Source: Candidatus Binataceae bacterium (GTDB lineage Bacteria; Desulfobacterota; Binatia; Binatales; Binataceae). Taken from it: DNA of 64,000 nucleotides. The first letter of the stretch is position 1. Each line of letters starts with the position of its first letter. This document shows, in pieces, positions 14,501 through 64,000 of the stretch. The notes under the pieces are model-generated. The model was not told the DNA's origin. It searched no databases and saw only the letters and a list, made by a program, of their open reading frames with translations. The stretch spans positions 178-64,177 of the forward strand of contig JBGPUE010000010.1 of the NCBI GenBank assembly GCA_041491005.1, written 5' to 3'. The position numbers were made by a program, and so were the translations under genes.

Positions 14501-17442
14501 GCGACGATGACGACGGCCACAACCGCAAGGGCGACACCGCCAGCCATTCGCCAATACGATCCGCGAAGATCAAGCCGGGTGCGGAACTTCGCCTGAGCGG
14601 CAGTAACCCACTCGAGCAGCCTCCGACGCCTCACGAACAGGCGGAAGAGCGTTCGCGAGATGGCGTCGGTCATCAACCACGCCTGATGCGCGAGGAATGT
14701 GACCACGAGCGCGATCTGTAAGAGAGCGACCAGGAGATCCGCGCCCACCGCGCGCAGATGGGTCCGCTTGGAGATACCGAGCCGTCGGGGCGCGATCCCG
14801 GCGAGCAGAGGCAACAGGGCAGGCACCGCGATCGTGACGAGCACGAAGGCGCTCCAGATTTTCGCGGAAAACAAGGGAAGAGACCATCCTGCCAGCAATG
14901 CCAGCAAGGCGGCCGGCGCCGACAGCGTTCGGCGCAGGTTGTCGATCATTTTCCAGCGGCCGATCAACGGAATCGCCGTGCGGCCCGGTTCGCCTTTTGG
15001 GTCGCGTCCCCGGCCGAAGATCCAGGGAAGTAATTGCCAATCGCCGCGCGCCCACCGATGCTGCCGCGCCGCGGCGACGTCATAGCGTGATGGAAACTCC
15101 TCGACCACCTCGATGTCAGAGACCAGTCCGGCCCGCGCGAAAATTCCTTCAAGCAGATCGTGACTCAGGAGCGTGCTGTCGGGAACCCGCCCTTCGAGAG
15201 CGGCTTCAAAGGCGTCCACGTCGTAGATTCCCTTACCGCTGTACGAACCCTCGCCGAAGAGGTCCTGGTATACGTCGGAGACGGCAGCCGCATACGGGTC
15301 GACGCCGCTGGCGCTCGAAAAGACACGCTGGAAAAGCGACCCGTCCCGACCGCTCGGCAACGACGGAGTAACTCGCGGCTGAAGCACCCCGTACCCCTCG
15401 ATCACGCGGCAGGAATGCGGGTCGAGGGTCGGACGGTTGAGCGGATGCGCCATCTTACCGATTAGCCGCTTGACGGCTCCCCGCGGTAGTCGCGTATCCG
15501 CGTCGAGCGTGATCACGTAGCGGACGCCGGGAGGCACGACCGGGAGGCGGGAGCCCATTGGCAGGAAGGTTGTGTCAGTCGCTCCGCGAAGCCATCGATT
15601 CAGCTCGTGTAGCTTGCCGCGCTTGCGTTCCCACCCGATCCACTTTCCCTCCCCGTCGTTCCAGATCCGCCGACGATGGAGCAGGAGGAATCGTTCCCCG
15701 TCCGGCGCCGGACCGTACAGCCGGTTCAGCCGCTCGATTCCCGCGACGGCTGCGCCGAGGAGCTTGTCGTCGCCCGGAGCATTCTCGGTGGCGCAGTCTG
15801 TCCAGTCCGAGAGGAGAGCGAAACGAAGATCGCCATCGGGAGTCGCGAGATGATGGACCTCGAGACGCTCGATCTGCTCCTCAAGTTCCGTTGGTGTCGT
15901 CAAGAGGGTGGGCACGACAACCATCGTGCGCAGACTCGACGGGACCCCGTCTCGAAGCTCCAGCCCAGGCAGTATCTTCGGGCCGAAGCAATTCATGACG
16001 CCGAGGTTCACCAGGGCCACACTCGCATCCAACGCCGGAAGGAATGCCAGGAGCGCGAGCATGACGAGAGTCCATCCGCCGACACCGGACTTTGCCACGC
16101 CGAGCAACAGTAGCGCGGAAATAAGCGTGACGACGATCGCGATGGTTCCGAGATAGCCCAGAATTCCCGCGGCCGCGTTGGCGCGAACGAGCCGTTGTCG
16201 CACCGGAACCTGAAATCCGATCTCGTTCTCGAGGGCCCGACGCCCTTTCGAGATGAGGTAATAGCCCGGCTCTTGCTCGCGGCGTGGGGTCGCCTCATCG
16301 CCGTTCACAGGATCTGCTGCCGCCCGCTTGGCGGCCACAATCGCCGATCGCGCGATATCGAGTTCCGTATGCGCCGACCCTCGCGCGAGCTCTTCGATCG
16401 CGTGCCTGTAGCGATCTCGAGTCGGGAAGTCCATTTCGGCAAAGTTGCCGCCGGCGCGGAGCACCGCATCAACGAGACTGACACTCTCGAAGAGTTCCGC
16501 CCAATCCACCGCGGACATCAGGCGCATGCTCATGATCGCATTGCGCACTGTCACGTTCATCGCGCCCTGCCTCTGATGCTCCTGACGGACGATCTCGTCG
16601 GCGGTCGTTCCCTGGGCTGCAAGGCGTTGGTCCAGCCAAAGGAGCGCTGGCGTCACGGTTGGGTCCTGATCGCGTAACCGCTGGACCAACTGAACCGCAA
16701 AGGCCGTCGGCAACGAGGTCTGATCGAAGCGTCGCAGAACAGTCTCCAGCGTCTCGCCCTTGCCATTGCCGACTCCCAATAGCCTGTCGGCTAGAGCGTC
16801 GGCCTCCTGGCGAGCCGCTCGACCCCTCACGATCCGCTCGGCCAAGCGCCGCAAATTCTCCACGAGCACGATTCGAAGCGTAATGGCAACGGCCCAGAGT
16901 TCGCCGATCGTCAGAGGCTGCACGCGCTGATAGGCCTGTAGGAACCGGGACAGCATCTGCGGATCGAAGCGGCTGTCGGTATGCGCAACGAAGGCCCAGG
17001 CAATTCCGAATACGCGGGGATAGCCTTCAAGTGGTCCTTCTGCAATTTTGGGCAACTGGCGATAGAAACCACGCGGAAGATCGTCCCGGACCTCGCGAAT
17101 TTGTTTTTCTACGACGTGGAAGTTGTCGACCAGCCATTCCGCCGCAGGCGTAATTGCGCGTTCCTCACGGATCGCTGCCGCGATCGCGCGATACGCTTTG
17201 AGCAGCACGCGACCATTTTCGCGCAGGCGTTTCAGCAGCCGTGAAGTAGTACCCGGCCTCGTCGTGACAGGCTGAGCAGCCGCAAGGCTCTCCGCATGCT
17301 GTTCGAGGCGCTCGATGCTGAACAATTCGGCGCGAATCGGCTCTTCAGCGTCTCCGGCGGTGGCCGCCAGCGGACCGTTAAGAGCTCGAAAAAATGAATA
17401 CTTCAAGTTTGCCTCTCGGCTTGGTGAACGCACCGAGAGCAA
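8578..17442 (-). CDS. ndvB: Cyclic beta-1,2-glucan synthase (NdvB/ChvB/Cgs type; GT84 glycosyltransferase region plus C-terminal GH94 glycoside-phosphorylase-like domain), 2954 aa
   Basis: Size and layout match Cgs: N-terminal membrane segments, a glycosyltransferase region (YDVAAARQHRWARGDWQLLPW) and a C-terminal GH94-like region (GGQYTHAAIWSVLAFAMLGEGDKAGELFSMLNPINH, GTGDWNDGMNRVG). The exact start is uncertain (TTG at 17442, GTG at 17433). Confidence 0.9.
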   Translation of the reverse strand: MLSVRSPSREANLKYSFFRALNGPLAATAGDAEEPIRAELFSIERLEQHAESLAAAQPVTTRPGTTSRLLKRLRENGRVLLKAYRAIAAAIREERAITPAAEWLVDNFHVVEKQIREVRDDLPRGFYRQLPKIAEGPLEGYPRVFGIAWAFVAHTDSRFDPQMLSRFLQAYQRVQPLTIGELWAVAITLRIVLVENLRRLAERIVRGRAARQEADALADRLLGVGNGKGETLETVLRRFDQTSLPTAFAVQLVQRLRDQDPTVTPALLWLDQRLAAQGTTADEIVRQEHQRQGAMNVTVRNAIMSMRLMSAVDWAELFESVSLVDAVLRAGGNFAEMDFPTRDRYRHAIEELARGSAHTELDIARSAIVAAKRAAADPVNGDEATPRREQEPGYYLISKGRRALENEIGFQVPVRQRLVRANAAAGILGYLGTIAIVVTLISALLLLGVAKSGVGGWTLVMLALLAFLPALDASVALVNLGVMNCFGPKILPGLELRDGVPSSLRTMVVVPTLLTTPTELEEQIERLEVHHLATPDGDLRFALLSDWTDCATENAPGDDKLLGAAVAGIERLNRLYGPAPDGERFLLLHRRRIWNDGEGKWIGWERKRGKLHELNRWLRGATDTTFLPMGSRLPVVPPGVRYVITLDADTRLPRGAVKRLIGKMAHPLNRPTLDPHSCRVIEGYGVLQPRVTPSLPSGRDGSLFQRVFSSASGVDPYAAAVSDVYQDLFGEGSYSGKGIYDVDAFEAALEGRVPDSTLLSHDLLEGIFARAGLVSDIEVVEEFPSRYDVAAARQHRWARGDWQLLPWIFGRGRDPKGEPGRTAIPLIGRWKMIDNLRRTLSAPAALLALLAGWSLPLFSAKIWSAFVLVTIAVPALLPLLAGIAPRRLGISKRTHLRAVGADLLVALLQIALVVTFLAHQAWLMTDAISRTLFRLFVRRRRLLEWVTAAQAKFRTRLDLRGSYWRMAGGVALAVVAVVIVACLGGGSWPIAAPFVILWMLSPAVARWASLPPPMVGPNPPSETDAQTLKLIARRTWSFFETFVTAEDHMLPPDNFQEEPIPMLAHRTSPTNLGLYLLSVTAAHDFGWLGVLETLERLDATLTTMSGLERFHGHFYNWYDTRKLRPLDPKYVSSVDSGNLAGHLIALENALREMIGGPVPRPGWLAGIDDALEIARECLRLLADDRRTQTVTRKHIEDALDALTASLRSPATTPADVGRRLAGLALDAHTAVDIAWTLNQERGDDASAQVLNWVEAVRASILSHQRDVEQLMPWAKLAGDVAFVAAERAVDGDAPLEEVLGYLFESVPTIADLPGHCEEAIRGLTRYRSELDPHARGVSAAVVRADALIDAFERSANAARVLERRLAALGEMAGKMFEAMEFGFLFDPARQLLAIGYRVAEGSLDPNCYDLLASEARLASFVAIAKGDVPARHWFRLGRDLTPVDRGSALISWSGSMFEYLMPSLVMRAPEGSLLAQSNRLVVRRQMKYGAELGVPWGVSESAYSARDLELTYQYSNFGVPGLGLKRGLSENVVVAPYATALAAMVDAKAAARNFTRLAAAGGLGRYGYYEALDYTPTRLPEGEDVAVVRAFMAHHQGMTLVAIDDALRNGTMRARFHAAPVMQATELLLQERTPRDVLVARPRAEEVKVAPNIREIVAPMLRRFRSPHDVIPRTHLLSNGRYAVMITAAGSGYSRWRDLAVTRWREDVTCDSWGTYVFLRDVRTGEVWSAGYQPTGVEPDSYGVVFSEDRAEITRRDGTLTTTLEIAVSPEDDAEVRRVSISNLGNRYREIEVTSYAEVVLAPPAEDAAHPAFSKLFVQTEFVADVGAVMATRRLRSPGEAPVWAAHLAVVEGETVGDLQFETDRAAFLGRARGIRTPISVIDGRPLSNTVGTVLDPIFSLRHRLRIPPGGRARVAFWTLIAPSRVEALDLADKHHDFTAFERAVTLAWTQAQVELHHLGVSPDEAHLFQRIANHVIYANPTMRPSSEVLKRSERGSSTLWAHGISGDLPIVLVRIDEAEDREIVRQLVRAHEYWRMKQLDVDLVILNEKPSSYDQDLQATLEALVRANQSRPQADGEAARGAVFVLRSDLISVEVRSLLQSTARAVLLSHHGSLTEQVNRLEESQPAIAPPPRRESAPANEQPKATPPQTSLEFFNGIGGFAAGGREYVTIFSEALWTPAPWVNVIANRSFGFQVSAAGSGYTWSISSRENQITPWSNDPVSDPPGEVIYVRDEATGAFWSPTALPIREETSPYVVRHGQGYSRFEHTSHGISLELLQYVSPEDPIKISRLKIRNLSARSRRLSVTAYVEWVLGASRITSAPFVVTEIDSTTGAMLARNPRSNDFGSRVAFADLAGRQSAWTGDRTEFVGRNGTLDSPAALASATPLSDRVGAGLDPCGVLQTQLQLAPNSAAEIVFFLGEAATKAEALSLITRYRTTDLDSVFRAVTRQWDEILGAVQVKTPDRAMDILMNRWLLYQTLACRVWARSAFYQASGAYGFRDQLQDVMALAASTPEVTREHLLRAAARQFAEGDVQHWWLPPSGQGVRTRISDDRVWLPYAAAHYVEVTGDLAVLDEMVPFVEGPTLRADEHESYFRPMVSEQRVTLFEHCARALDVSLAVGHHGLPLIGTGDWNDGMNRVGEKGKGESIWLGWFLYSTLSDFAHLADDRGENARAANWSRHAAALKQSLERDGWDGDWYRRGYFDDDSPLGSASSTECRIDSIAQSWGVISGAADPARAATAMAAVEKYLVRRNEKLVLLFTPPFDLAPLDPGYVKGYPPGIRENGGQYTHAAIWSVLAFAMLGEGDKAGELFSMLNPINHASTRAGIHRYKVEPYVACADIYATPPHVGRGGWTWYTGSAAWMYRVGLERILGFRLRGATLVIDPCVPKAWPRFEIVFLYHSARYEIAVENPRGVSRGIASIELDGEALSRNRPVIPLANDGVTHRVRITLG

Positions 17443-34644: not shown

Positions 34645-34877
34645 GTCGTTCCTCTCTTAGCCGAGCTTTCCGCAATCCCTGTGCCACCAGTCACGAACGC
34701 CAGCTTGGCCGAATCGGCGGCCGTTGTGTCACCAAGAGAGACACGCGTGACCCCGTTGGGCGCAAACTTTGAAGTGACGGGCGTGGCGGTTGGCGGCCGA
34801 CCCTTCTGACGCACGATCGGCGTTCACGGCGCACGTCTTGCAAGTTGGCCTGATCGGGCTAGGCTCGTCACAGATCG

Positions 34878-35300
34878 ATGCCCAGCGACGAATTCTACCG
34901 TGAGATCGAGCACACCGGGGATGCGGGTGTCGAGCTCGTCGCCACGTCGCGCGCTGAACTGTTCCGCAGGGCCGCGATCGCGATCGCGCGGCTGATGGTG
35001 GCGCCCGAGGGCGTCCGCCCGATCGAGCGGCGCGAGGTGCGGGTCAGTGCAGTGAGCGATGCCGACCTGATGCACGACCTGCTCGCGGCGTTGCTCAACT
35101 TGTTCCTGGTTGAAGGGTTCATTTGGTGCGATGCGGTGGTGAATGAAGACGGCGATTCAGTGCGCGCGGACGTAGTCGGCGAACGCTATGATCCCGCGCG
35201 CCACGAGCTGCGCACCGAGATCAAAGCCGTGACCTACCATCAGCTGTCGGTCGAGCGCGTGGGAGATCGCTGGCAGGCGCAGGTGATTTTCGACATCTAG
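34878..35300 (+). CDS. Archease (RtcB activator)
   Basis: YREIEHTGDAGVELVA signature; 140 aa; immediately upstream of rtcB. Confidence 0.85.
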   Translation: MPSDEFYREIEHTGDAGVELVATSRAELFRRAAIAIARLMVAPEGVRPIERREVRVSAVSDADLMHDLLAALLNLFLVEGFIWCDAVVNEDGDSVRADVVGERYDPARHELRTEIKAVTYHQLSVERVGDRWQAQVIFDI

Positions 35301-35359
35301 GCTGCCCCGCGCGCAATCGTGCGAAGCGCGGCCGTCGAACGCGTCGGCGGTATCCGGTT

Positions 35360-36796
35360 ATGGAACTCCAGAAGATCAGCGACTTTCTATGGGAAATCCC
35401 GCGCCATGGAGCGATGCGCGTGCCGGGGCGGATTTACGCCAGCCAGCAGATGATCGACGAACTCCGCGATGATCCAGCGCTGACGCAGGTCGCGAACGTC
35501 GCGTGCCTGCCCGGCATCGTCGGCTACTCGCTCGCGATGCCCGATATCCATTGGGGCTACGGATTTCCGATTGGCGGTGTTGCCGCGACCGATGCCGACG
35601 AAGGAGTGATTTCACCCGGCGGTGTCGGCTACGACATCAACTGCGGCGTGCGGCTGATCAAGACCAACCTCGAGTACACGGCCATCGCGGACAAAGTTGA
35701 TCGTCTGGCTGACGCGCTCTTCGATGCTGTGCCCGCGGGCGTTGGCTCCAGCGGCGCGATTCCCGGCCTCGCGACCGACGAGCTCAAACGTCTGCTCGGC
35801 TCCGGCGCCGTATGGGCGATGAACCACGGCTACGCTTCGATGGATGATCTCGAGCACACCGAAGAGAGCGGCCGGCTCGAGATGGCTGACCCATCGGCCG
35901 TCAGCGAGATGGCGCTCAGGCGCGGGCGCATCCAGCTCGGCACACTCGGCTCGGGCAATCACTTCCTCGAATGCGACCGTGTCGATCAGATCTACGACCC
36001 CGACATCGCGCGCGCCTTCGGCCTCGAGCTCGGCCAAGTGACTGTGATTATCCATTCAGGCTCGCGCGGACTGGGCCATCAGATCTGCGACGACCATTTG
36101 CGCGTGATCGGCAAGGCGATGAGCGGTTACGGGATCACTCTACCCGACCGCCAACTCGCCTCGGTGCCGATCCGCTCGCCGGAGGGTCGTGCCTACCTGG
36201 GCGCGATGGCGGCGGCGGCCAACTTCGCCTGGTGCAACCGGCAGATCATGATGCATCTGGCCGAGCGCGCCTTCATGGAGACGCTGGGCACAGGGCCGCG
36301 CGAAGTCGGCTTCTCGTTGCTGTACGACGTTTGCCATAACATCGCCAAGTTCGAGCGCCATGTGGTGGGCGGTGTCGAACGGCGCGTATGTGTGCATCGC
36401 AAAGGTGCAACGCGCGCCTTCGGCCCAGGCCATCCGGCGCTGCCCATCGCCTTTCGAATGATCGGGCAGCCAGTGCTGATCCCCGGTGACATGGGCCGCT
36501 ATTCGTATGTGCTGGTGGGACGCGAACGTGCGATGGCCGAGACCTTCGGTTCGACCTGTCACGGCGCTGGGCGCTTAATGAGCCGCGCCGAAGCCAAGCG
36601 CCGGGCGCGCGGCCGCGACCTACTGGCGGAATTGCGGGAGGCCGGCGTGACGATCAGGTACCAAGGCCGTTCGACAGTCGCGGAGGAAATGCCGGCCGCT
36701 TACAAGGATGTCGCAGACGTGGTCGGAGTGATGGAAGCGGCTGGCGTCAGCAAGCGAGTGGCGCGGCTCAAACCCTTCGCCGTAATAAAGGGTTGA
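35360..36796 (+). CDS. rtcB: RNA 3'-phosphate/2',3'-cyclic-phosphate RNA ligase RtcB
   Basis: DIHWGYGFPIGGVAA, GYDINCG, HSGSRGLGHQ, THNHAGR-like CHGAGR motifs; 478 aa. Confidence 0.9.
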   Translation: MELQKISDFLWEIPRHGAMRVPGRIYASQQMIDELRDDPALTQVANVACLPGIVGYSLAMPDIHWGYGFPIGGVAATDADEGVISPGGVGYDINCGVRLIKTNLEYTAIADKVDRLADALFDAVPAGVGSSGAIPGLATDELKRLLGSGAVWAMNHGYASMDDLEHTEESGRLEMADPSAVSEMALRRGRIQLGTLGSGNHFLECDRVDQIYDPDIARAFGLELGQVTVIIHSGSRGLGHQICDDHLRVIGKAMSGYGITLPDRQLASVPIRSPEGRAYLGAMAAAANFAWCNRQIMMHLAERAFMETLGTGPREVGFSLLYDVCHNIAKFERHVVGGVERRVCVHRKGATRAFGPGHPALPIAFRMIGQPVLIPGDMGRYSYVLVGRERAMAETFGSTCHGAGRLMSRAEAKRRARGRDLLAELREAGVTIRYQGRSTVAEEMPAAYKDVADVVGVMEAAGVSKRVARLKPFAVIKG

Positions 36797-37132
36797 TGCC
36801 GCGTCCATCGGCCTAGCCACCGCTATTGACGTTATTGAGTCCTACGAGTGTGTCAGGCGATGCGCCGAGCGCTCTGGATGCCGTAAGCGTCAGCCGCGTC
36901 GCCGCAGTGCGCGATTACGCGACGCGAATCTGCCTGATTGGCGCTGCTGCATCTAACGGAGTCATTGGTTCCCGGCTGACCCTCCTTACGAAAGCACCCA
37001 TCTCCGACATACTCTGTCTTTCGACATGGCGTTCCAATTCATAAGCAGCGATGGTGCGATTCGCTGGACTTAGACGCGAGCATCGGCGCATCCAGTTGAT
37101 TGTGCGGGGCTGAATACCTCCGCCTGTTTGTG

Positions 37133-37148
37133 CGGCAGGAGAATTGCT
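37133..37148 (+). promoter_or_regulatory. Weak sigma54-type (-24/-12) promoter candidate upstream of usp
   Basis: cGGCAGgagaaTTGCT: GG and GC are at the canonical 10-nt spacing but with 2 mismatches to TGGCAC-N5-TTGC. The resulting leader would be very short (~14 nt). Confidence 0.2.
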
Positions 37149-37172
37149 CAGGGCTCATGCAATAAGTCGGCG

Positions 37173-37583
37173 ATGAGACTGCTGTTCCGAAAGATTCTTT
37201 GTCCTATCGATTTCGACCGCATCGCGATCGGAGCAATCCAACTCGCGCGCGAGCTAGCCGGGCGAGACGGCGGCCTCGTCTACCTCTTGTGCGTCGTCCC
37301 CAAAGACCGGACTCGTCTGAAAGCCGACTTGGAGCAGGTCGCACACAACAGCTTGCGCGGGATTGGCCGCAAATGGTTCGAGGGAAAAGCGCCGTACGAG
37401 ATCCTCGTTCGCGCCGGCCGGCCAGCGCGGGCGGTGCTTGATGCGGCGGAGGAACTCGGCGTTGACGTCGTGGTGATGGCAACTCATGGGCGAACAGGAA
37501 CCAGGCGTGTGCGTCTGGGCAGCGTTACCGAGGAAGTGGTTCGGCAGTCGACACGACCGGTGGTGACAATCAGGCCAACGTAG
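37173..37583 (+). CDS. Universal stress protein (UspA family)
   Basis: MRLLFRKILCPIDFD... aligns with the second Usp (MSKLFNRILCPIAFE); C-terminal ATP-binding motif VVMATHGRTGTRRVRLGSVTEEVVRQSTRPVVTIRP. Confidence 0.8.
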   Translation: MRLLFRKILCPIDFDRIAIGAIQLARELAGRDGGLVYLLCVVPKDRTRLKADLEQVAHNSLRGIGRKWFEGKAPYEILVRAGRPARAVLDAAEELGVDVVVMATHGRTGTRRVRLGSVTEEVVRQSTRPVVTIRPT

Positions 37584-37637
37584 GGCTTGGCCTGCTTCGT
37601 CGATCTTAACGCGCCAAATCGAGGAGGACATCGCACA

Positions 37638-37838
37638 ATGAGCAGATACAATTGGGACGAAATCAACCGCACGGTTGAGGACTTAACCAAGCGTTACAAC
37701 ATCGCAGCGGTCGACAGCGTGACCGTCGGTGGAAATAGCGATGGAGTCGAGTTGACGCTCACCTCGCTGACCCCCGAGCAAGCCGAGCAGATCTTCAGGC
37801 TCATCGGGCTCAAGCAAGTCGAGCTCACAGTGCTCTGA
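37638..37838 (+). CDS. Small hypothetical protein (66 aa)
   Basis: Strong SD GAGGAGGA 7 nt before the ATG; protein-like composition (MSRYNWDEINRTVEDLTKRYNIAAVDSVTVGGNSDGVELTLTSLTPEQAEQIFRLIGLKQVELTVL). No recognised domain. Confidence 0.5.
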   Translation: MSRYNWDEINRTVEDLTKRYNIAAVDSVTVGGNSDGVELTLTSLTPEQAEQIFRLIGLKQVELTVL

Positions 37839-38109
37839 TCGCGCATCAAGCCGCCTCACTCTCTCGTTGACGGTCCGCAATGGTAGTCGTCGCGAAGAGC
37901 ACCCTTGTTCCGACGATACGGCGGAGTCGCGTAGATGCGGCGAGGCTGCTTCGTCCCCCGCTTCGATGCCGGGCCTCACGATGTTTGTGTGGAGCGATCC
38001 GGAGCGCGGCTGGCGCCTTTGGAAACACATCAGAGGGGGCTGGCTTACCGTGGTTCACTGTGGCCTACCCGGAAGCTGAGAATTCAGTGCAACGAATCCA
38101 GGAGTTCGA

Positions 38110-38125
38110 TGGCAAGTTTCTTGCG
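38110..38125 (+). promoter_or_regulatory. Sigma54-type (-24/-12) promoter upstream of hsp20
   Basis: TGGCAAG-tttc-TTGCG matches TGGCACG-N4-TTGCW at 13/15 positions with exact GG/GC spacing. The predicted TSS (~38136) leaves a 35-nt leader containing the SD AAAGGAGGAGAG. Confidence 0.45.
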
Positions 38126-38170
38126 ACACAGCATCATCGAACACCAACAATTTGAAAGGAGGAGAGATCA

Positions 38171-38623
38171 ATGGGAGCATTAACCCCATGGAGGCCGTTT
38201 CGCGAAATGGAGCGATGGGCGCGCAATCTGGAGGGCCGCTTTCCGCGAGTCTTTGAGGACTGGCCGTTTCGGGCCGAGGAAGCGGAGTTTCTGCCGCCGA
38301 TTGAGAGCTTCGTCCAGAACGGCAATATCGTCGTGCGCGCCGACGTTCCCGGACTGGAGGCCAAGGACATCGAGGTCAGCGTTTTGGGCAACGTGCTGAC
38401 GATCAAAGGCGAGCGCAGGGATCAGAAGGAAGTCAAGGCCGAGGATTACATCCGGCGCGAGATCTCCTACGGCTCCTTCGAGCGCAGGCTTACGCTGCCC
38501 GATGGCGCCGATGCCGACAAGGTCAAGGCGCAGTTCAAAAACGGGACGGTCGAGATCACGATGCCGATGGCCAAGGGCGCCAGCCCCAAGAAAGTGCTGG
38601 TGGAGAGCGCAGAGAAGAAGTAG
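38171..38623 (+). CDS. Hsp20/alpha-crystallin small heat-shock protein
   Basis: 150 aa; alpha-crystallin-domain pattern (...FLPPIESFVQNGNIVVRADVPGLEAKDIEVSVLGNVLTIKGER...FERRLTLPDGADADKVKAQFKNGTVEITMP). Confidence 0.9.
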   Translation: MGALTPWRPFREMERWARNLEGRFPRVFEDWPFRAEEAEFLPPIESFVQNGNIVVRADVPGLEAKDIEVSVLGNVLTIKGERRDQKEVKAEDYIRREISYGSFERRLTLPDGADADKVKAQFKNGTVEITMPMAKGASPKKVLVESAEKK

Positions 38624-38734
38624 TCAATCGGTCACAGGGGCAGGCGGCTACCACGCATCGCAGTTGTGCCTGCCTCCCCCGCGGCACTGGATTGTCGCAG
38701 CTCACGCGGCCTGACGCGAAAGGAGGAGATTCAG

Positions 38735-39337
38735 ATGCCAGCCGGGTCGACGATCTTGAATACCAATCACGAGCGGGTCGAGAAGCTCCGAACAGTGCTA
38801 GTCAGCCAACGCGACCATGCGTGGGCAAGGGTGCGGGAGTTCCGTCACGACCAGGAAGGCGACGCGATTCCGCCGCCGGCGGATGAGATGGACCTGGCGC
38901 GTTCGACCGCCGACCTCGAGACTCATGCGAGCCTGATCGAACAAGCGGAAGACCGGCTCGCACAAATCGACGACGCGCTGGCGCGGCTCAACGAAGGCCG
39001 CTATGGGATCTGCGCAAAATGCGTCGAGGAGATCGCGGTCGAGCGTCTCAACACGCTGCCCTTCGTGCTGTACTGCGTCGATTGCCAGCGCGAACTCAAC
39101 CGTGCGCGCCGCCGCGGCGAGGGCAGCCTGTCGCGCAGTTTCGGCCGCCGCTGGGAGACGCCGCTGGAGATGGATGAATCGCTGGAGAGGACCGACGCGA
39201 TGAGCCAGCCCGAGGAAGAAACCACCATACGCGAAGGCCGGCCTTTCGGCCGCGAAGAGGGCACTCCAGACCACGGCCGGATGCCGCGTACGGGCAGGGG
39301 CTTGGTTCGGCGCGGACGGCCCAAGCGCAGTGCGTAG
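38735..39337 (+). CDS. DksA/TraR-family C4 zinc-finger protein with a long disordered C-terminal tail
   Basis: Coiled-coil N-terminal region plus CAKCVEEIAVERLNTLPFVLYCVDC (C-x2-C-x17-C-x2-C). SD AAAGGAGGAG; 200 aa. Confidence 0.7.
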   Translation: MPAGSTILNTNHERVEKLRTVLVSQRDHAWARVREFRHDQEGDAIPPPADEMDLARSTADLETHASLIEQAEDRLAQIDDALARLNEGRYGICAKCVEEIAVERLNTLPFVLYCVDCQRELNRARRRGEGSLSRSFGRRWETPLEMDESLERTDAMSQPEEETTIREGRPFGREEGTPDHGRMPRTGRGLVRRGRPKRSA

Positions 39338-39355
39338 TCGCGCAGGGGATACCGG

Positions 39356-39802
39356 ATGAGCAAACTATTCAACCGGATTCTCTGCCCGATCGCGTTCGAG
39401 CACGAGTCGTTGAGCGCCCTCGATCTGGCCATAGCGATCGCGCAGCAGAACGACGCGACCCTCGTGCTGCTCAACGTCGCGCCGCTCCCAATCGGAGCCG
39501 GCGAATTCGCGCCGACGCTCGATCCGTATCCCGCGATCGAGCAAGTGGCGCGCGAACGGCTTGAGCGACTGGCCCACGATCGGCTTGAAGGCAAGGTCGC
39601 ATACAACACCCATGTCGTCGCGGGCGATCCGGCGACGCAGATCCTCCGTGCGATCGAGGCCTTCGCCGCCGATCTGGTCGTGATGGGGACGCATGGGCGC
39701 AAGGGCGTCAAACATCTGCTGTTGGGGAGCGTCGCGGAGAAGGTCGTGCGCGAGTCACCGCGGCCTGTGCTGACCGTGCGTCCCGCAGAGGAAGCGCGCT
39801 GA
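39356..39802 (+). CDS. Universal stress protein (UspA family)
   Basis: MSKLFNRILCPIAFEHESL...VVMGTHGRKGVKHLLLGSVAEKVVRESPRPVLTVRP. Confidence 0.85.
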   Translation: MSKLFNRILCPIAFEHESLSALDLAIAIAQQNDATLVLLNVAPLPIGAGEFAPTLDPYPAIEQVARERLERLAHDRLEGKVAYNTHVVAGDPATQILRAIEAFAADLVVMGTHGRKGVKHLLLGSVAEKVVRESPRPVLTVRPAEEAR

Positions 39803-39828
39803 CGGCTTGATACGCGGGAGGCAGACAC

Positions 39829-40479
39829 TTGCAGATAACTACCGACTCAGTTGAACTTGAGGGCGACCTCGAGATGCCGGCGGGCGTTGCGCGGGGAATC
39901 GTGATCTTCGCGCATGGGAGCGGAAGCAGCAGGCTCAGCCCGCGTAACATGTACGTGGCTGCCCGTTTGCGTGCGGCCGGAGTCGCCACATTGCTTTTCG
40001 ACCTGCTCACCGAGGCCGAGGCGCTGGATCGCCAAAACGTCTTCGATATGGAGCTGCTCGCCCGCCGCTTGCGGGCCGCTACCGCATCGGTGCGCCGCCA
40101 TCGGCTCGCCGGGATACTACCGGTCGGCTATTTCGGCGCCAGTACCGGCGCTGCTGCTGCACTAATCGCCGCAACGCGCGATCCAGCGATCACCGCGATC
40201 GTGTCGCGCGGTGGGCGACCCGACCTCGCGGGAGATGCGCTCGCTCAGGTGAAGGCGCCGACGCTGCTCATCGTCGGCGGCGAAGACCGCGAAGTGCTGG
40301 AGTTGAATCGGCGCGCGCTCAGGCGCCTGAGCTGCGAGAAAGAACTCCGGGTAGTTCCGGGTGCGACGCATCTGTTCGAGGAGCCGGGAACGCTCGACGA
40401 GGTAGTGAAGCTCGCCAGCGATTGGTTCGTGCGCCATCTGCACGCTCACCCGGGCGAAAAGGAGACCCATGTTCACTAA
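39829..40479 (+). CDS. Dienelactone-hydrolase-like alpha/beta hydrolase
   Basis: GIVIFAHGSGSSRLSPRN, nucleophile elbow GYFGASTGAAAAL, PTLLIVGGEDREV, ATHLFEEPGTL. Confidence 0.75.
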   Translation: MQITTDSVELEGDLEMPAGVARGIVIFAHGSGSSRLSPRNMYVAARLRAAGVATLLFDLLTEAEALDRQNVFDMELLARRLRAATASVRRHRLAGILPVGYFGASTGAAAALIAATRDPAITAIVSRGGRPDLAGDALAQVKAPTLLIVGGEDREVLELNRRALRRLSCEKELRVVPGATHLFEEPGTLDEVVKLASDWFVRHLHAHPGEKETHVH

Positions 40480-41173
40480 TCGCCAGGATGCGGGACGCCG
40501 GCTCGCCAAGGCTCTCGCCCGCTACAAGGATGACCATCCCGTCGTGCTGGCACTGCCGCGCGGTGGAGTTCCGGTCGGTTTCGAGGTAGCCAAGGCGCTG
40601 AGCGCGCCGCTGGACATTATCGTCGTGCGCAAGCTGGGCGCTCCCGGACAACACGAGCTGGGGATCGGCGCGGTCGTCGACGGCGACCATCCGCAGACCG
40701 TGCTCAATGAGGAACTGCTGCGAAGGATCGATGTGCCCAAGAGTTACCTCGAAGCAGAGATCCTGCGCGAGCTTGAGGAGATCCACCGCCGCCAGCAGAC
40801 CTACCGCAAGGGGCATCCACCGGTCGATCCAGCCGGGCGGATTGTAATCGTCGTCGATGATGGGATCGCGACTGGCGCCTCGATACGCGCGGCGTTGCGC
40901 GGTCTGCGAAAGCTCGCTCCCCGCCGTCTGGTGCTCGCCGTGCCGGTCGCACCCGCCGAGACGATCGAGTCGCTCAGAGCCGAGGTCGACGAGGTGGTTT
41001 GTCTTGCGACCCCGCCCGATTTCTTCGCTATCGGACAGTACTATGACGATTTCAGGCAGACTTCTGACGCGCAGGTAGTCGAGCTGCTCGACAAGGCGCG
41101 CAATCGTGTGCTGGCGCCCTCGCCGCCAGCGGCACGCTCTCCATCAGAAGAGAGCAAAGCGCCCTCCTGCTAG
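40469..41173 (+). CDS. Predicted phosphoribosyltransferase (type I PRTase fold)
   Basis: PRPP-binding motif IVIVVDDGIATGASIRAAL; N-terminus MFTNRQDAGRRLAKAL. Confidence 0.75.
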   Translation: MFTNRQDAGRRLAKALARYKDDHPVVLALPRGGVPVGFEVAKALSAPLDIIVVRKLGAPGQHELGIGAVVDGDHPQTVLNEELLRRIDVPKSYLEAEILRELEEIHRRQQTYRKGHPPVDPAGRIVIVVDDGIATGASIRAALRGLRKLAPRRLVLAVPVAPAETIESLRAEVDEVVCLATPPDFFAIGQYYDDFRQTSDAQVVELLDKARNRVLAPSPPAARSPSEESKAPSC

Positions 41174-55830: not shown

Positions 55831-57162
55831 TCATTCGATTCCATAGCGTCTGCGTTTGCGCCAGAGCGTGGTGGCGTTGATTCCGAGCGTTGCGGCGGCC
55901 TCATCAAGTGTCGCGCTCTCGGCCAGCACTCGCGCGATATGTTCTCGTTCGACGTCTTCGAGACTCGCGGCAGGCGAGGTGGTGCCCGGCGCCTGCGGTA
56001 TATCGCGGAAGATCGAATCGGGCAGATCGTCGGGCCCGATGGTATCGCTGCGGCTTAGCACCGCGGCGCGCTCAAGAGCGTTACGCAACTCGCGCACGTT
56101 TCCCGGCCATTGATAGCGGGCCAGGGCCGCGCCGGCCTGCGGCGCGAGCCGGAGCTGCGGACGGTGGTTGCGAATCGCCGCCGCACGCAGCATCCACTCC
56201 GCCAGCGCCGGGATGTCCTCGCGGCGCTCGCACAGCGGCGGCACGCGGAGCGTAATCACGTTGAGCCGGTAGAACAGATCTTCGCGGAAGCGGCGCGCCT
56301 TGACCTCGTCTTCCAGATCGCGATTGGACGCGGCGATGATTCGCGCGTCGACCCGGATCGTGCGTTCTCCGCCCACGCGTTCGAAGCTCTGTTCCTGGAC
56401 GAAGCGTAGAAATTTGGTCTGCAGTGCGGCCGAGAGGTCGGCGATCTCGTCGAGAAATACCGTGCCGCCGTCGGCCGCCTCCAGGCGGCCGGGCTTGTCC
56501 TTGATGGCGCCGGTGAATGAACCGCGCATATGGCCGAAGAGCTCGCTTTCGAGCAGCTGCTCCGAGAGCGTCGTGCAGTTGACCACGACGAACGGGCGCT
56601 CGCATCGCGGACTCCATCTGTGAATCTGGCGGGCGAGGACGTTCTTGCCGGTGCCGCTCTCGCCGCTGAGCAGGATCGTCGCCTCGCTGCGCGCAGCCTG
56701 CCGCGCGGTTTCCAGCATGCGAACCATTGCGGCGCTGCGCGATTCCAGCATCGGCATCTCGTCGATAGTCTCGCGTAGCACCTGGTTCTCCGCCTGCAGG
56801 CTGTGCATCTGCAGCGCGCGATCGACCACATGGCGTATCTGGTCGAGCGAGAAAGGCTTGGCAATATAGTCGGAGGCGCCGGCCTTCATCGCGGCCACTG
56901 CGTTCTCGACGGTCGCGTAAGCCGTCATCAGGATCACCGGCGTGTAGGGATGCAGCCGCTTCGCCTCGTTGAGCAGCTCGAGTCCGTTCATCTCCGCCAT
57001 CCGGAAGTCGGTCAAAACCAGATCCAGCGGTCCTGCGGCGAGCGTCTGTATCGCCGCGACGCCGCTGGCGGCTTCGCGCACCTCGTGTCCGAGCGACTGG
57101 AAGAACGCCGCGAGGCTGCGGCGAATGTTCTTCTCGTCGTCGACGATGAGCAGTCGCGCCAT
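55831..57162 (-). CDS. Sigma54-dependent (NtrC-family) two-component response regulator
   Basis: Receiver MARLLIVDDEKNIRRSL...DLVLTDFRM; AAA+ sigma54-interaction domain GESGTGKNVLARQIH, GSFTGA (GAFTGA variant), ERVGG; C-terminal Fis-type HTH. The start ATG overlaps the kinase stop (ATGA). Confidence 0.9.
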   Translation of the reverse strand: MARLLIVDDEKNIRRSLAAFFQSLGHEVREAASGVAAIQTLAAGPLDLVLTDFRMAEMNGLELLNEAKRLHPYTPVILMTAYATVENAVAAMKAGASDYIAKPFSLDQIRHVVDRALQMHSLQAENQVLRETIDEMPMLESRSAAMVRMLETARQAARSEATILLSGESGTGKNVLARQIHRWSPRCERPFVVVNCTTLSEQLLESELFGHMRGSFTGAIKDKPGRLEAADGGTVFLDEIADLSAALQTKFLRFVQEQSFERVGGERTIRVDARIIAASNRDLEDEVKARRFREDLFYRLNVITLRVPPLCERREDIPALAEWMLRAAAIRNHRPQLRLAPQAGAALARYQWPGNVRELRNALERAAVLSRSDTIGPDDLPDSIFRDIPQAPGTTSPAASLEDVEREHIARVLAESATLDEAAATLGINATTLWRKRRRYGIE

Positions 57163-58952
57163 CAGGCCTCCGTCATCGCCGGCAATTCGACTACGAAGCG
57201 GCTGCCGCGATCGCCGTTGCTTTCGACGAAGATCCGGCCGCCGTGTGCCTCGACGATGTCCCTTACGATTGCGAGTCCCAGTCCTGCCGAACCGGCTCCA
57301 CCGCCGTTGGCGGCGTATTGAGCGAAGCGCTCGAAGATGTAGTCGCGAATCTCCGGCGCAATCCCGGGCCCCGAGTCCGCGACTTCGAGTATCACCGTAT
57401 GATTGCGCGGCCGCGCAACGATCTCGATTTTTCCGCCGCTGGGCGTATAGCGCAGCGCATTGCCGATCAGATTGGAGACCATCCACGACAGCTTCACAGG
57501 ATCTCCGTTGAGCTGCGGCACAGGCTCGATGCGCCGCTCAAGCACGACTTGCTTCTCGCGCGCCTGCAGGGCGAAGCGTTCGCTCACCTCCTCCGCGAGG
57601 CGGCCGATGTCGAGCGGCCGGCGCTGCACCGCGATCGCGGCTGCTTCGCCGCGGGCGAGGCTCAGCAGGTTGTCGCTAAGCTGCTTCATCCGCGCGCATT
57701 CCTCAAGGATAGCGCCCAACAACGCCCGCTGTCTTGGCTCCAGGCCCTCATGCTCGCGGCCGAGCAGCTCGGCAGAAAGCGCGAGCGAGGTGAGCGGCGT
57801 GCGGAGCTCATGCGAGAGCGTCGCGACCAGGTTCGTGCGTGCGCGATCCTGATCGCGCAGGTAGGTAACATCCTGCATGATGAGCAGCGTACCCAGCGCG
57901 CCGCCCTCGGGATGGCGCAGCGGCACCGGCTTCAGCACGTAAGAGTGTTCGCGGCCGCGCACGTGGAGTTCCACCTCGATGCGCTGGGCGCCGGAAGCGG
58001 ACTTGCGCGACGTCCTGAGCGCGTCCCGGATGCGCAGGTAGTGCGGATGGTTGCTGCTCAGATCATCGAAGATGCTGCCGAGCGCGTCGGCCGCATCGAT
58101 GCCCAGAATGATCGCCGCGATCTCGTTGATGTGTGCGACGACACCTCCCGAGTCAATCAGCACGACGCCGTCCTCGAGGCTCTCGATGATCGCCTCGGTC
58201 TTGCTCTTCTCATAGACCAGCCGCTCGACGTTGAGCTTCTCATACTGTTCCAGCCGCTCGGCCATCTCGTTGAACTCGCGCGCCACGATATCGAGTTCGG
58301 TGAGTCGCTGCGGGCCGAGCCGCAAATGCGTGTCGCGGCGGCTGATTCCGCGCAGCCGCTCGGCAAGTTCCGTCAGCGGCCTCGACAGTGTCCACGACAG
58401 CCCCCACGACAGTGCCACGCCGGTGAAAATGAGCACCAGCAATCCGGCTGCGAACTCGTAGGTCAGGCGCATGCCAAGCCGCATCGCGCGGCTATCGGCA
58501 CGGAACATCGCCGCCCGGTTCATCTGGATCAGATCGTCGAGCAACCCATGAAGCCGGTCATACCCTGCGTCGCGCTCCGCCTGGGGCTGCCCAGCGGCGA
58601 TCTCGCGAAATAACTCGAGAGCATTCGACTCGACGCTGTGTGCCAGCTCCGGCTCACCCACTTCCGTATGGATATGATTCTCGACGTCAATCCAGTGCAT
58701 AAAGGCAGCGCTCGAGGAGGGCAGCGCCGCGCGCCCTTGGCCCGCACGATCGGCAAGTTGCAACCGCCTGAGCTCTGAGTGCATGTGCTGAGCGGCGTCG
58801 ATGCTGACGTAGTTGCGGTACAGTGTCTCGCGAATCGCACCGCCGAGCCGGTACAAGTGCGGCAGGGCGTATCCGCCAAGAATCAAAACCACCGCCAGCA
58901 TCAGCAACGTACCGTTGCGAATCCGGCCGCGGAGCGATGGCGTCTTCATCGC
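57162..58952 (-). CDS. Membrane sensor histidine kinase (two TM helices, periplasmic-type sensor, HAMP, HisKA, HATPase_c)
   Basis: TM1 LLMLAVVLILGGYALP, TM2 LLVLIFTGVALSWGLSWTL, H-box LVATLSHELRTPLTSL, N/G boxes NLIGNALRYTP...DSGPGI...GLGLAIV. The start is set at MKTPSLRG. Confidence 0.85.
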   Translation of the reverse strand, partial: AMKTPSLRGRIRNGTLLMLAVVLILGGYALPHLYRLGGAIRETLYRNYVSIDAAQHMHSELRRLQLADRAGQGRAALPSSSAAFMHWIDVENHIHTEVGEPELAHSVESNALELFREIAAGQPQAERDAGYDRLHGLLDDLIQMNRAAMFRADSRAMRLGMRLTYEFAAGLLVLIFTGVALSWGLSWTLSRPLTELAERLRGISRRDTHLRLGPQRLTELDIVAREFNEMAERLEQYEKLNVERLVYEKSKTEAIIESLEDGVVLIDSGGVVAHINEIAAIILGIDAADALGSIFDDLSSNHPHYLRIRDALRTSRKSASGAQRIEVELHVRGREHSYVLKPVPLRHPEGGALGTLLIMQDVTYLRDQDRARTNLVATLSHELRTPLTSLALSAELLGREHEGLEPRQRALLGAILEECARMKQLSDNLLSLARGEAAAIAVQRRPLDIGRLAEEVSERFALQAREKQVVLERRIEPVPQLNGDPVKLSWMVSNLIGNALRYTPSGGKIEIVARPRNHTVILEVADSGPGIAPEIRDYIFERFAQYAANGGGAGSAGLGLAIVRDIVEAHGGRIFVESNGDRGSRFVVELPAMTEA

Positions 58953-60163
58953 GCGTTCTCCTGCTCGGAGTCGCCCACAATCTCGACGTCGACACCACGC
59001 GCCTGCGCGAGTATGCGCATGGTCACATCGAGGTGAAGCCACCGCCGCCAGATCGGCTGATGAGTACGCCCGAGGATGATTTTCGTGATGCCCTTTTCGC
59101 GGGCAAAGTCAAGCATCGTCCTGACGATGTCATCGCCCTTGAGCCAGACTGATTCCGCGCCCAGATCGCCAGCCAGGTTGATGTTGTCGAGCAGCGCCAC
59201 GAAGTCGCTGGTGCGCACCTTGTGCACCGATTCGGACGGCGTTTCCACGTGGATGGCATACCACTCGGCGTTGAGCCGCCCCGCGATACGCGAGGCCTTG
59301 CGCAACAGCTTGTCACCGTCGGCCGGATTGGAGGAGAGCCCGACCATGATCCGCTCGGTGATTTGGAGCCGGCGGCCGCCTTCGCGCTTGAGCGCTTCCT
59401 GCCCTTCGCGCTGGCGGCTGAGCCCGCGCGCAACCTCACGAAGAGCCATCTCGCGCAACGAGGCAAGATTGCTCGGCTTGAAGAAGTTTCGCAGCGCCTG
59501 CTCGATCTGCGCGGCAGGATAGATCTTGCCTTCTCGCAGCCGCTCACGGAGCGCCTCGACCGTCACGTCGACGTTTACGACCTGATCCGCACGCGCAAGG
59601 AAGGCGTCGGGCACGGTCTCGCGCACCTCGATACCCGTCACCCGTTTCATCAGCGGGTTGAGGCTCTCGACGTGCTGGATGTTCATCGCCGAGATGACGT
59701 TGATGCCTGCGGCAACCAGATCCTCGACGTCCTGGTAGCGCTTTTCGTGTTTGGAGCCGGGTACGTTGGTATGCGCCAGCTCGTCGACGATCGCGACCTC
59801 CGGTTTGCGCGCGAGGATGGCGTCGACATCCATCTCCTGCAACGTCACGCCCCGGTGCGCAATCGTGCGGCGCGGGACGACCTCCAATCCCGCGATTTTC
59901 TCGGCAGTTTCGGCGCGCCCATGAGTCTCGACCACCCCGATTACAGCGTCGACGCCTTTGGCGCGCAGCTGATGCGCCTCTTCGAGCATCTCGTACGTCT
60001 TGCCGACACCCGCTGCAGCGCCGACGTAGATCTTGAGGCGGCCCTTGAACGCCTGCGGAACGAGATCGAGAAACGACTCGGGCTCGGGGCGCACATCGTC
60101 AGGGGGCCGGGCAGAGCCACGGTCCGCTTCACCCTTCGGCGACTGCGTCATTCGCCAAGTCAT
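58946..60163 (-). CDS. kdpD: Stand-alone KdpD N-terminal sensor domain + Usp domain protein (no transmembrane or kinase part)
   Basis: KdpD-N P-loop region LKIYVGAAAGVGKTYEMLEEAHQLRAKGVDAVIGVVETHGRAET followed by a Usp-like domain; 405 aa; ends 6 bp into the next ORF. Confidence 0.8.
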   Translation of the reverse strand: MTWRMTQSPKGEADRGSARPPDDVRPEPESFLDLVPQAFKGRLKIYVGAAAGVGKTYEMLEEAHQLRAKGVDAVIGVVETHGRAETAEKIAGLEVVPRRTIAHRGVTLQEMDVDAILARKPEVAIVDELAHTNVPGSKHEKRYQDVEDLVAAGINVISAMNIQHVESLNPLMKRVTGIEVRETVPDAFLARADQVVNVDVTVEALRERLREGKIYPAAQIEQALRNFFKPSNLASLREMALREVARGLSRQREGQEALKREGGRRLQITERIMVGLSSNPADGDKLLRKASRIAGRLNAEWYAIHVETPSESVHKVRTSDFVALLDNINLAGDLGAESVWLKGDDIVRTMLDFAREKGITKIILGRTHQPIWRRWLHLDVTMRILAQARGVDVEIVGDSEQENAR

Positions 60164-60238
60164 TTGCGCGGCTGCCCTGTCGATCCGGTCTCGGCAGGGA
60201 TCCCTTCCTATTATCCATCTAAGGTCAGCTCGATAGTA

Positions 60239-60844
60239 TCATCTCTCGTTGCGAACTTGCCGAGTGCGGTCCGGGGACAATGCGTCGAGGGCGAGGTTCA
60301 GGCGCAAAACATTCACCCCGGGCTCGCCGAAGATTTCGGCCCATCGCCGACTTGTATTCACCCTGACTAGCCGGCGTACCGCGTCTTCGGCCAAGCCTCT
60401 GGTCTTTGCGACGCGGGCGACCTGGATATCCGCGGCGGCCGGGCTGATCTCGGGATCCAATCCACTACCCGACGCAGTGACCAGATCGATCGGTACCTGT
60501 GCCGGCCGCACGCCCTCGGTTTCGACCACCGCCTTGAGCCGCGTCTGGACGGCGTCGATCAGCGTCTTGCTGGTTGGGCCGAGGTTCGAGCCGCCCGAAC
60601 TCAATCCATCGTAGCCCTTCGCCCCAGCCGTTGAGGGCCGCCCGTGAAAGTTGCGCGCACTTGAGAAGTTCTGTCCGATAAGTGACGACCCGACCAGCTT
60701 GCCGTTCACATATACGAGGCTGCCATTGGCCTGTAGCGGGAAGAGCAACTGGGCCACCGCCCAGACTGCCAGCGGGTAGATGACGCCCGTTAGCAACGTC
60801 ATCACCACGGTAAGCCGGGTTGCGATCCACAGTGAACGCATCAT
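60239..60844 (-). CDS. kdpC: Potassium-transporting ATPase subunit C
   Basis: TRLTVVMTLLTGVIYPLAVWAVAQLLFPLQANGSL (KdpC signature N-terminus). Confidence 0.9.
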   Translation of the reverse strand: MMRSLWIATRLTVVMTLLTGVIYPLAVWAVAQLLFPLQANGSLVYVNGKLVGSSLIGQNFSSARNFHGRPSTAGAKGYDGLSSGGSNLGPTSKTLIDAVQTRLKAVVETEGVRPAQVPIDLVTASGSGLDPEISPAAADIQVARVAKTRGLAEDAVRRLVRVNTSRRWAEIFGEPGVNVLRLNLALDALSPDRTRQVRNER

Positions 60845-60851
60845 CTGTACC

Positions 60852-62894: not shown

Positions 62895-62900
62895 GACTTC

Positions 62901-64000
62901 CTAGAAAAGCCTGCCGGTCATCATTGCGAGCTGTTCAACAATCGGGCCGAGCGCGAGTGCCGGAAAGAAGGTCAGCGCGCCCACGATCACGACAACGGAA
63001 ACCAGCAGTACCACGAAGGTCGCACCGTTGGTGGGAAAAGTCCCGGCGCTCGGCGCCGCGATTTTCTTGCCGGCCAGCGAACCCGCGATCGCCAGCGCGG
63101 GAATCGCCATCATGAAGCGGCCGGAGAGCATCGTGATTCCGAGGGTCACGTTGTAGAAGGTCGTGTTGGCGTTGAGCCCCGCGAACGCCGACCCGTTATT
63201 TGCCACTGCCGATGAGAATGCATAGAGAATTTCCGAAAAGCCATGCGGCCCCATATTGGCGCGGCTCGCAAGCCCCGCCTCGGTGACGCTTGCGGCGGCT
63301 GCGGGCAGCAGGATAAGCGCGGGGAAGATCAGCACGTAGAGCATCACCAGCTTCATCTCGCGCGCCTGAATCTTCTTACCCAGGTATTCTGGCGTGCGGC
63401 CCACCATCAGCCCTGCGATGAAGACCGCGAGCACCGCCATCACGAGCATCCCGTACAAGCCCGATCCCACGCCGCCAAAAACCACTTCGCCCAGATGCAG
63501 GTTCACCAGCGCCATCAGCCCGCCCAATGGCGTGAAGCTGTCATGCATCGAGTTAACCGAGCCGTTGGAGGCCGCGGTCGTGGCCGTCTCCCAAATCCCG
63601 GAGCTGACGATGCCGAAGCGGACTTCCTTGCCCTCCATGTTGCCACCGCTTTGACCGCCGGTGGCTGCCTGATTGATTCCCATGCTCGCGAACTGCGGGT
63701 TGCCATGCTGCTCCGACCAGACCGCGGGCACGAGCGTCATCACATAGAGCACGGCCATCGCGGCAAACAACGCCCATCCTTGCCGCATGTCGCCGGCCAT
63801 CTTGCCGAACGTCAAAGTGAGCGCTCCGCCGAGCGCCAGGATTGCCAGCATCTCGATCAGATTTGTCAGCCTGGTCGGATTCTCGTACGGATGCGCCGAG
63901 TTGGCGTTGAAGAAGCCGCCGCCGTTGGTGCCGAGCTGTTTGATTGCGATTTGCGACGCGACGGGGCCCTGCGGGATGGTCTGCGCAGCGCCTTCGAGCG
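62901..64000 (-). CDS. kdpA: Potassium-transporting ATPase subunit A (3' part; the gene continues beyond the window end)
   Basis: C-terminal half of KdpA (…[11 protein letters not shown]…[13 protein letters not shown]…). The reading frame stays open to position 64000. Confidence 0.85.

Follow-up and report, generated by a model that had tools for sequence, protein, structure and literature searches.

The stretch analyzed here, 64,000 nucleotides (nt) of contig JBGPUE010000010.1 from a Candidatus Binataceae bacterium and referred to below as the window, carries a cluster of stress genes in which the plus-strand order is archease, the RNA ligase RtcB, a universal stress protein (Usp), an open reading frame (ORF) of 66 amino acids (aa), the small heat-shock protein Hsp20, a DksA/TraR-type protein, a second Usp, a dienelactone-hydrolase-like protein, a phosphoribosyltransferase and YkuD. 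Divergent from archease lies hpf-CSD, whose product joins a ribosome hibernation factor to a cold-shock domain. The subject of this analysis is a 16-nt element between the 66-aa ORF and hsp20, which an initial annotation had read as a near-consensus sigma-54 (-24/-12) promoter. The two genes with the strongest motifs and their sites are the following.

38110..38125, plus strand: putative sigma-54 (-24/-12) promoter of hsp20, TGGCAAGTTTCTTGCG, so read from its sequence, its core-matrix rank of 2 and an equivalent motif in relatives
38171..38623, plus strand: hsp20, small heat-shock protein, 150 aa (Pfam HSP20, E = 1.4e-23)
34671..34686, minus strand: strong sigma-54 promoter candidate, TGGCACAGGGATTGCG, core-matrix rank 1 in the window at 17.8 bits
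34111..34644, minus strand: hpf-CSD, 177 aa (Pfam Ribosomal_S30AE and CSD; gene call in L001)

The element upstream of hsp20

The element is located in a 332-base-pair (bp) intergenic region (37839-38170) and is followed, after 45 nt, by the hsp20 ATG (38171) on the same strand. Its GG (38111-12) and GC (38123-24) are exactly 10 nt apart, with TTTC as the spacer, in agreement with the GG/GC spacing originally reported for position 38110. Compared with TGGCACG-N4-TTGCW, 14 of the 16 positions agree, the departures being position 6, where A replaces C, and position 16, where G replaces W, and the whole is almost the same as the nac promoter of Escherichia coli, TGGCAAGCATCTTGCA (PMC2831329, Table 1). 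Transcription is predicted to start at about 38136, some 12 nt past the GC, and the predicted hsp20 leader of about 35 nt is unstructured and contains a free ribosome-binding site, GGAGGAG. An Rfam scan of 33-41 kb returned zero families at E <= 1, and thus no known RNA thermometer near hsp20. Homologues of this Hsp20 with a named source bear almost without exception the label Candidatus Binataceae, the closest ones included.

The strength of the match was assessed with two matrices trained on 18 experimentally known E. coli promoters (PMC2831329, Table 1), one of 16 columns and one restricted to the core, in which only the -24 and -12 blocks are scored and the spacer is omitted. The loose pattern GG-N9-TGC is not enriched in the window (187 observed vs. 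194 expected), the exact pattern TGGCA-N6-TTGC occurs twice, and a related pattern with a spacer one base longer and zero mismatches has a shuffle mean of 0.53. The 16-column matrix, which is dominated by the AT-rich E. coli spacers, assigns 12.5 bits to the hsp20 site, a score equalled or exceeded on average 3.3 times in dinucleotide-shuffled windows. With the core matrix the site reaches 15.7 bits, within the range of the training promoters (8.8-17.8), and takes rank 2 among 127,970 positions, with p = 0.0014 in a preset 91-nt zone 5′ of the hsp20 ATG. Both top-ranking sites, those of hpf (rank 1) and hsp20 (rank 2), are intergenic, correctly oriented and 26-45 nt before the start codons of stress genes, falling inside a promoter zone that makes up 5.4% of the strand-specific positions in the window. 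Judged by the window alone, the hsp20 match is borderline.

It is conceivable on this basis that the element is a chance match or a non-productive sigma-54 binding site, and that hsp20 uses a housekeeping or heat-shock sigma promoter. The roughly three equally good matches that the full-length matrix gives per shuffled window favor such an explanation, as does the example of E. coli ibpB, where the sigma-54 site accompanies a sigma-32 promoter. A consensus scan for an E. coli-type sigma-70 promoter found none in 37839-38170, but such a negative carries little weight in an uncultured lineage, whose promoter consensus may differ from that of E. coli. Against it stand the position of both best window sites in the small promoter zone before stress genes, the consideration that an additional promoter might stand alongside the sigma-54 promoter but would not abolish it, and above all the orthologous loci described below.

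Conservation of the motif at orthologous loci

Close relatives yield no footprint, because the 5′ DNA of hsp20 is identical in them: the ten contigs with an identical Hsp20 share identical 5′ DNA, and the same holds for L136. A diverged set was therefore assembled from Hsp20 homologues at 60-71% identity found by protein search, for eight of which contigs were obtained, plus one locus from a metagenome scan. The 5′ sequences of these diverged loci display no evident similarity, as judged by eye without alignment. When 400 nt 5′ of the gene were searched at eight other Binataceae hsp20 loci, the best match was always a correctly spaced -24/-12 motif, located 56-81 nt before the ATG. The motifs read as follows.

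L047: TGGCGTGCTCTTTGCG
L125: TGGCAGGAGCTTTGCT
L126: TGGCGCGTTGTTTGCT
L129: TGGCGCGGGTCTTGCG
L130: TGGTGCGCCCCTTGCA
L132: TGGCACATCTCTTGCG
L133 and L134: TGGCGCGTTGCTTGCT
L135: TGGCAGGGGCTTTGCT

Among eight orthologous sites, TGG, TTGC and the spacing are invariant. With the preset zone from -130 to -40 scored by the E. coli core matrix, and the score distribution over the whole of each locus taken as null, the per-locus p values range from 0.0014 to 0.017, and Fisher's method combines nine loci to p = 8e-12. The corresponding value is 0.37 for 15 control loci, which came from a scan of a genome collection with Hsp20 and are mostly distant hsp20 genes of other phyla without the motif. Since the diverged orthologous loci carry the -24/-12 motif at the same place, the reading given in the initial annotation is strongly supported: we infer dependence on sigma-54, and 38110-38125 is very probably a functional sigma-54 promoter of hsp20. 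With the combined p of 8e-12 against 0.37 for the controls, at loci whose flanks appear unrelated by eye, a chance or non-productive match is very unlikely. The case also illustrates that a borderline match in a single window can be validated through the comparison of orthologous loci.

The same sites bear on a different explanation of the element, as the operator of a dimeric repressor or activator. The core GCAAG-TTT-CTTGC in TGGCAAGTTTCTTGCG is a perfect 5-3-5 inverted repeat and the reverse strand is also a weak match, both of which such a reading would accommodate. The orthologous sites, for example GCAGGAGCTTTGC, GCACATCTCTTGC and GTGCGCCCCTTGC, are not palindromic, however; what they keep is TGG, TTGC and the spacing, the features that sigma-54 recognizes, and not those on which a protein binding the palindrome would depend. 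The operator was rejected for the lack of a palindrome in the orthologues, and we regard it as extremely improbable.

As a sigma-54 promoter, the element would be bound by RNA polymerase with sigma-54 as a closed complex at 38110-38125, and transcription would start near 38136 only upon ATP hydrolysis by an AAA+ enhancer-binding protein. Sigma-54 promoters stay silent until an ATP-driven activator fires them, so that their use on hsp20 and hpf would mean tight on/off switching of protein-holding and ribosome-hibernation genes, not control by the classical heat-shock sigma factor.

Several observations besides the full-length matrix score weigh against the promoter assignment. The motif is missing from two further hsp20 loci, L013 (59% identity, with a frameshifted hsp20) and L049 (56% identity, with hsp20 directly after a usp gene). 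The sites before usp and archease in the window rank just 36 and 55 with the core matrix. Searches with tblastn and an E. coli RpoN query gave no rpoN match in the window or any fetched locus. Nor did an upstream activator sequence emerge, such as would be expected some 80-200 bp upstream: shared k-mers and inverted-repeat half-sites in 33 promoter-positioned sites were no better than in shuffles, so that no motif shared across promoters exceeds the null expectation. Local repeats in three intergenic regions of the window have nothing in common, and 5′ of hsp20 only local palindromes are present, such as GCGATCCGGAGCGC at 37994-38007.

The promoter type is already known, as sigma-54 control of both ibpB and rtcB is established in E. 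coli. The ibpB promoter is among the 18 known sigma-54 promoters and served as a positive control in chromatin immunoprecipitation, and rtcB, as also stated in the initial annotation, is sigma-54-dependent, with the promoter TGGCACGACGGTTGCA (PMC2831329). In ibpB and in the window alike, a small heat-shock gene of the Hsp20/IbpB family stands behind a -24/-12 promoter. The two differ in that the E. coli site, TGGTAAATGGTTTGCT, lies 168-185 nt upstream, inside the ibpAB operon, whereas the window site is 45 nt from the ATG; moreover, the window gene has no other evident promoter, and the same motif recurs on neighboring stress genes. The proteins are distantly related, the window Hsp20 scoring about 20 bits on the NCBIfam IbpA/IbpB models, whose cutoffs exceed 200.

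Two side observations concern the 5′ region itself. The segment 37839-38170 is 100% identical to L136, which is 98.1% identical overall, where about 6 differences would be expected; more of the 332-bp region than the 16-nt promoter may be constrained, perhaps because it contains an enhancer or encodes a small RNA. An 82-aa ORF is called within it in some annotations. In a Nitrospira sp. metagenome-assembled genome (L029), a strong -24/-12 match, TGGCATTTTATTTGCA, lies about 210 nt 5′ of hsp20, and sigma-54 control of hsp20 may occur outside Binataceae as well.

Motif-bearing genes in the window and in relatives

The remaining sites and genes of the window cluster that enter the argument are listed here.

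37133..37148, plus strand: weak sigma-54-like site before usp, CGGCAGGAGAATTGCT, core-matrix rank 36
37173..37583, plus strand: usp, universal stress protein, 136 aa (Pfam Usp; gene call in L001)
34827..34842, plus strand: weak sigma-54-like site before archease-rtcB, CGGCGCACGTCTTGCA, core-matrix rank 55, 35 nt before the archease ATG
34878-35300, plus strand: archease (Pfam Archease, E = 9e-37)
35360-36796, plus strand: RtcB RNA ligase (Pfam RtcB, E = 4e-174)
37638-37838, plus strand: the 66-aa ORF separating usp from hsp20, annotated as a gene in every near-identical contig and without a match in Pfam or NCBIfam
38735-39337, plus strand: DksA/TraR-type zinc-finger protein (Pfam)
39356-39802, plus strand: second usp (Pfam)

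The best site in the window, TGGCACAGGGATTGCG, was missing from the initial annotation. It ends 26 nt before the hpf-CSD start codon, and in L136 (98.1% identical) its sole change is one spacer base. The cold-shock domain of the encoded protein replaces the usual C-terminal domain of long HPF; the fusion is kept in L125 and L135 and apparently split in L132. The weaker copy that had been noted before the first usp does exist, 24 nt before the ATG (37173), where the leader would have a length of about 14 nt and lack a clear Shine-Dalgarno sequence; its rank is such that it is not significant on its own. Stronger sites precede the usp genes of L129, L133 and L126. The sites of usp and archease-rtcB are thus plausible and suggestive only, neither being individually significant. 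No correctly spaced -24/-12 motif was found 5′ of dksA in the window, and a hairpin 3′ of hsp20 is no stabler than in shuffles, so that hsp20, dksA and the second usp may share a transcript.

In the relatives the motif is spread in a regulon-like manner. About 28 of the 34 sites of at least 12 bits in their loci sit just 5′ of genes, according to a tally with our own approximate matrix. The genes behind them include usp, usp-CBS, dksA-like genes, PolX, a single-domain response regulator (REC) and several hypotheticals, and further motif-led groups are a cluster of a 62-aa ORF and FtsH and a one-strand cluster ending in phosphoribosyl pyrophosphate synthetase, RtcB and archease. The rtcB gene has its own motif in L130, and in L126 a gene with a 14.9-bit site is located upstream of it on the same strand. 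Several loci show the order hsp20, CBS gene, hpf on one strand. Where hpf is downstream of hsp20 on the same strand, as in L125, L135 and L132, it would be under the hsp20 promoter, which fits the separate strong hpf site in the window. The initial proposal that neighboring stress genes carry sigma-54-type promoters is also supported by the hpf site, with a weak one at archease-rtcB, and by nearly every stress-cluster operon in the relatives. From this distribution we infer a sigma-54 stress or dormancy regulon common to the lineage Candidatus Binataceae, of which the hsp20 promoter is part; in the window it would include at least hpf-CSD, given its strong site, and probably also usp and archease-rtcB, whose sites are weak. 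Such a conserved motif offers a simple handle with which to predict the whole regulon across Binataceae genomes. None of the papers listed by literature searches deals with a sigma-54 hsp20/usp regulon or connects Binatia with sigma-54.

Two known arrangements are comparable. The RtcR/rtcBA system is similar in its rtcB, which the window carries in the hsp20 cluster and which has a sigma-54-type motif in front of it in L130; in L126 such a motif stands before the gene heading its cluster. The window differs in that archease, not rtcA, is the partner of rtcB, RtcR is lacking and the motif is weak (rank 55). The second comparison is with the hypoxia/dormancy gene set of the Mycobacterium tuberculosis DosR regulon, DosR being a LuxR-type response regulator that acts at sigma-70-type promoters. 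Here the likeness lies in clustered usp genes, alpha-crystallin/Hsp20, a hibernation factor, CBS, ribonucleotide reductase and a hydrolase-phosphoribosyltransferase, each operon bearing the same regulatory motif. The low-oxygen locus lxa of Burkholderia cenocepacia has a similar gene content, with an FNR/Anr-like TGA-N6-TCA motif (PMC3721108). In Binataceae the shared element is instead a sigma-54 promoter. The cluster (window 34878-41173 and L125-L135) also contains erythromycin esterase and PolX.

Candidate activators

A promoter of this type calls for an enhancer-binding protein, and the window encodes one gene of that kind, preceded by a kinase gene.

55834..57165, minus strand: NtrC-type response-regulator sigma-54 activator with REC, Sigma54_activat (GSFTGA loop) and HTH_8
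57162-59042, minus strand: HAMP-PAS histidine kinase, the gene preceding the NtrC-type activator

Further upstream of the kinase, on the same strand, lie kdpB and a partial kdpA, the block from kdpA to the activator spanning 55834-63851. That this Kdp-associated regulator is the sole enhancer-binding protein of the window and that rtcR is absent from it were both stated in the initial annotation, and both statements hold. Searches with tblastn using two activator sequences found this one activator gene; it scores 326 bits on the NCBIfam RtcR model (cutoff 650), matching through the AAA+ core only. No RtcR (CARF-AAA+-HTH) is encoded near 34878-36796 or elsewhere in the window, and all activators examined score far below the cutoff. 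The intact activator implies that sigma-54 is in use by the organism, with no implication for the control of hsp20, and the many further sigma-54 activators in the lineage point to such use as well.

The NtrC-type regulator, or another two-component activator, might nevertheless act at a genuine hsp20 sigma-54 promoter, leaving the globin-domain protein described below uninvolved. Being the sole sigma-54 activator gene in 64 kb, it has an intact REC domain, GSFTGA loop and helix-turn-helix (HTH) and is paired with a PAS-containing kinase; REC and REC-PAS genes also stand behind sigma-54 motifs in the clusters of relatives (L125, L129). It is, however, 18 kb distant and neighbors its kinase gene, with kdpA and kdpB upstream on that strand, a position suggesting that it serves potassium transport. 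In the fetched hsp20 flanks of relatives, moreover, no NtrC-type response-regulator activator was called, the activators present there being without REC. This makes the two-component alternative rather unlikely.

A different activator was found in the relatives. In L126 and L129 a gene for a 500-aa protein adjoins the cluster; the N-terminal domain of this protein is an orphan and is followed by a sigma-54 AAA+ domain, whose loop reads GAFSGA, and by HTH_8. The family is widespread in Binataceae, with at least 120 clusters of full-length homologues of about 500 aa, and the sigma-54 contact loop is GAFSGA or GAFTGA in ten homologues inspected. Conservation is high over the N-terminal 190 aa, among them the stretches FHLLW, LHF, HLFEES and FDKLSH. 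Sequence searches of Pfam, NCBIfam and the PDB with this domain returned nothing credible and no sequence-level match to a globin family. The AlphaFold model of the domain (predicted local distance difference test score, pLDDT, 86) matches sensor globins and the non-heme globin of RsbR, with the following structure-match scores.

BpeGReg: 13.0
RsbR: 12.8
AfGcHK: 12.6
Geobacter globin-coupled sensor: 12.5
DosC: 12.3
HemAT: 12.0

With Foldseek, the top 21 matches are all globins, phycobiliproteins appearing at lower ranks. The modeled structure thus points to an N-terminus with a sensor-globin fold, to which an output domain is attached. No histidine is invariant in the predicted F helix (residues 90-106), where position 96 is D or H, and the invariant histidines of the candidate, H23, H58, H119 and H148, are all outside it. 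The known globin-coupled sensors (HemAT, AfGcHK, DosC, BpeGReg) and RsbR have chemoreceptor, kinase, diguanylate cyclase or STAS domains as outputs; in the candidate, by contrast, this role falls to a sigma-54 activator (AAA+ and HTH). Among the papers listed by a literature search, none combines globin-coupled sensors with enhancer-binding proteins.

The candidate gene stands beside usp, CBS or hsp20 genes with sigma-54 motifs in L126, L129 and L138, its neighbors in the last being CBS and usp-CBS genes, and in L137 it lies directly upstream of the cytochrome bd oxidase genes cydAB. This placement beside the same clusters hints that the signal is oxygen, redox state or general stress. Weighing on the other side are its absence from the 64-kb window by tblastn, the nature of its link to hsp20, which is gene neighborhood in three of four contexts, and the degenerate GAFTGA loop of the L129 copy. 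The enhancer-binding protein whose existence the initial annotation had deduced is a sensible expectation, for which the relatives supply a candidate family that the window itself lacks.

On present evidence the 500-aa family is a reasonable candidate for the enhancer-binding protein behind hsp20. Its gene would not adjoin hsp20 in the window, and the globin-fold N-terminal domain would be the sensor; the assignment of this particular activator and signal to hsp20 is tentative. It is possible, though doubtful, that Binataceae run a dormancy-like stress regulon almost wholly from sigma-54 promoters, comprising hsp20, several usp, hpf-CSD, CBS, dksA-like, ribonucleotide reductase, FtsH, rtcB-archease and PolX genes, with the hsp20 promoter as a target of a globin-coupled enhancer-binding master activator that responds to oxygen, to NO, to redox state or, like RsbR, to general stress. 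If true, this would be a previously undescribed globin-coupled master activator and a functional analogue of mycobacterial DosR that works through another transcription machinery. Two aspects may be new: the scale, a dormancy-like gene set apparently wired through sigma-54 in an uncultured phylum, and the globin-coupled sensor, a testable candidate to which the conserved motif also points.

Some further observations were made elsewhere in the window. The position of the NtrC-type activator is a hint that sigma-54 controls potassium uptake as well; the kdp promoter is past the window end. The core-matrix site of rank 3, TGGCACGCAGATCGCT (2269-2284, plus strand), is located at the 3′ terminus of a glycosyltransferase gene; 124 nt separate it from a downstream gene for a 1406-aa methyltransferase/glycosyltransferase, and it may be a sigma-54 promoter of a cell-envelope gene. 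A single ORF of 2954 aa occupies 8578-17442 on the minus strand.
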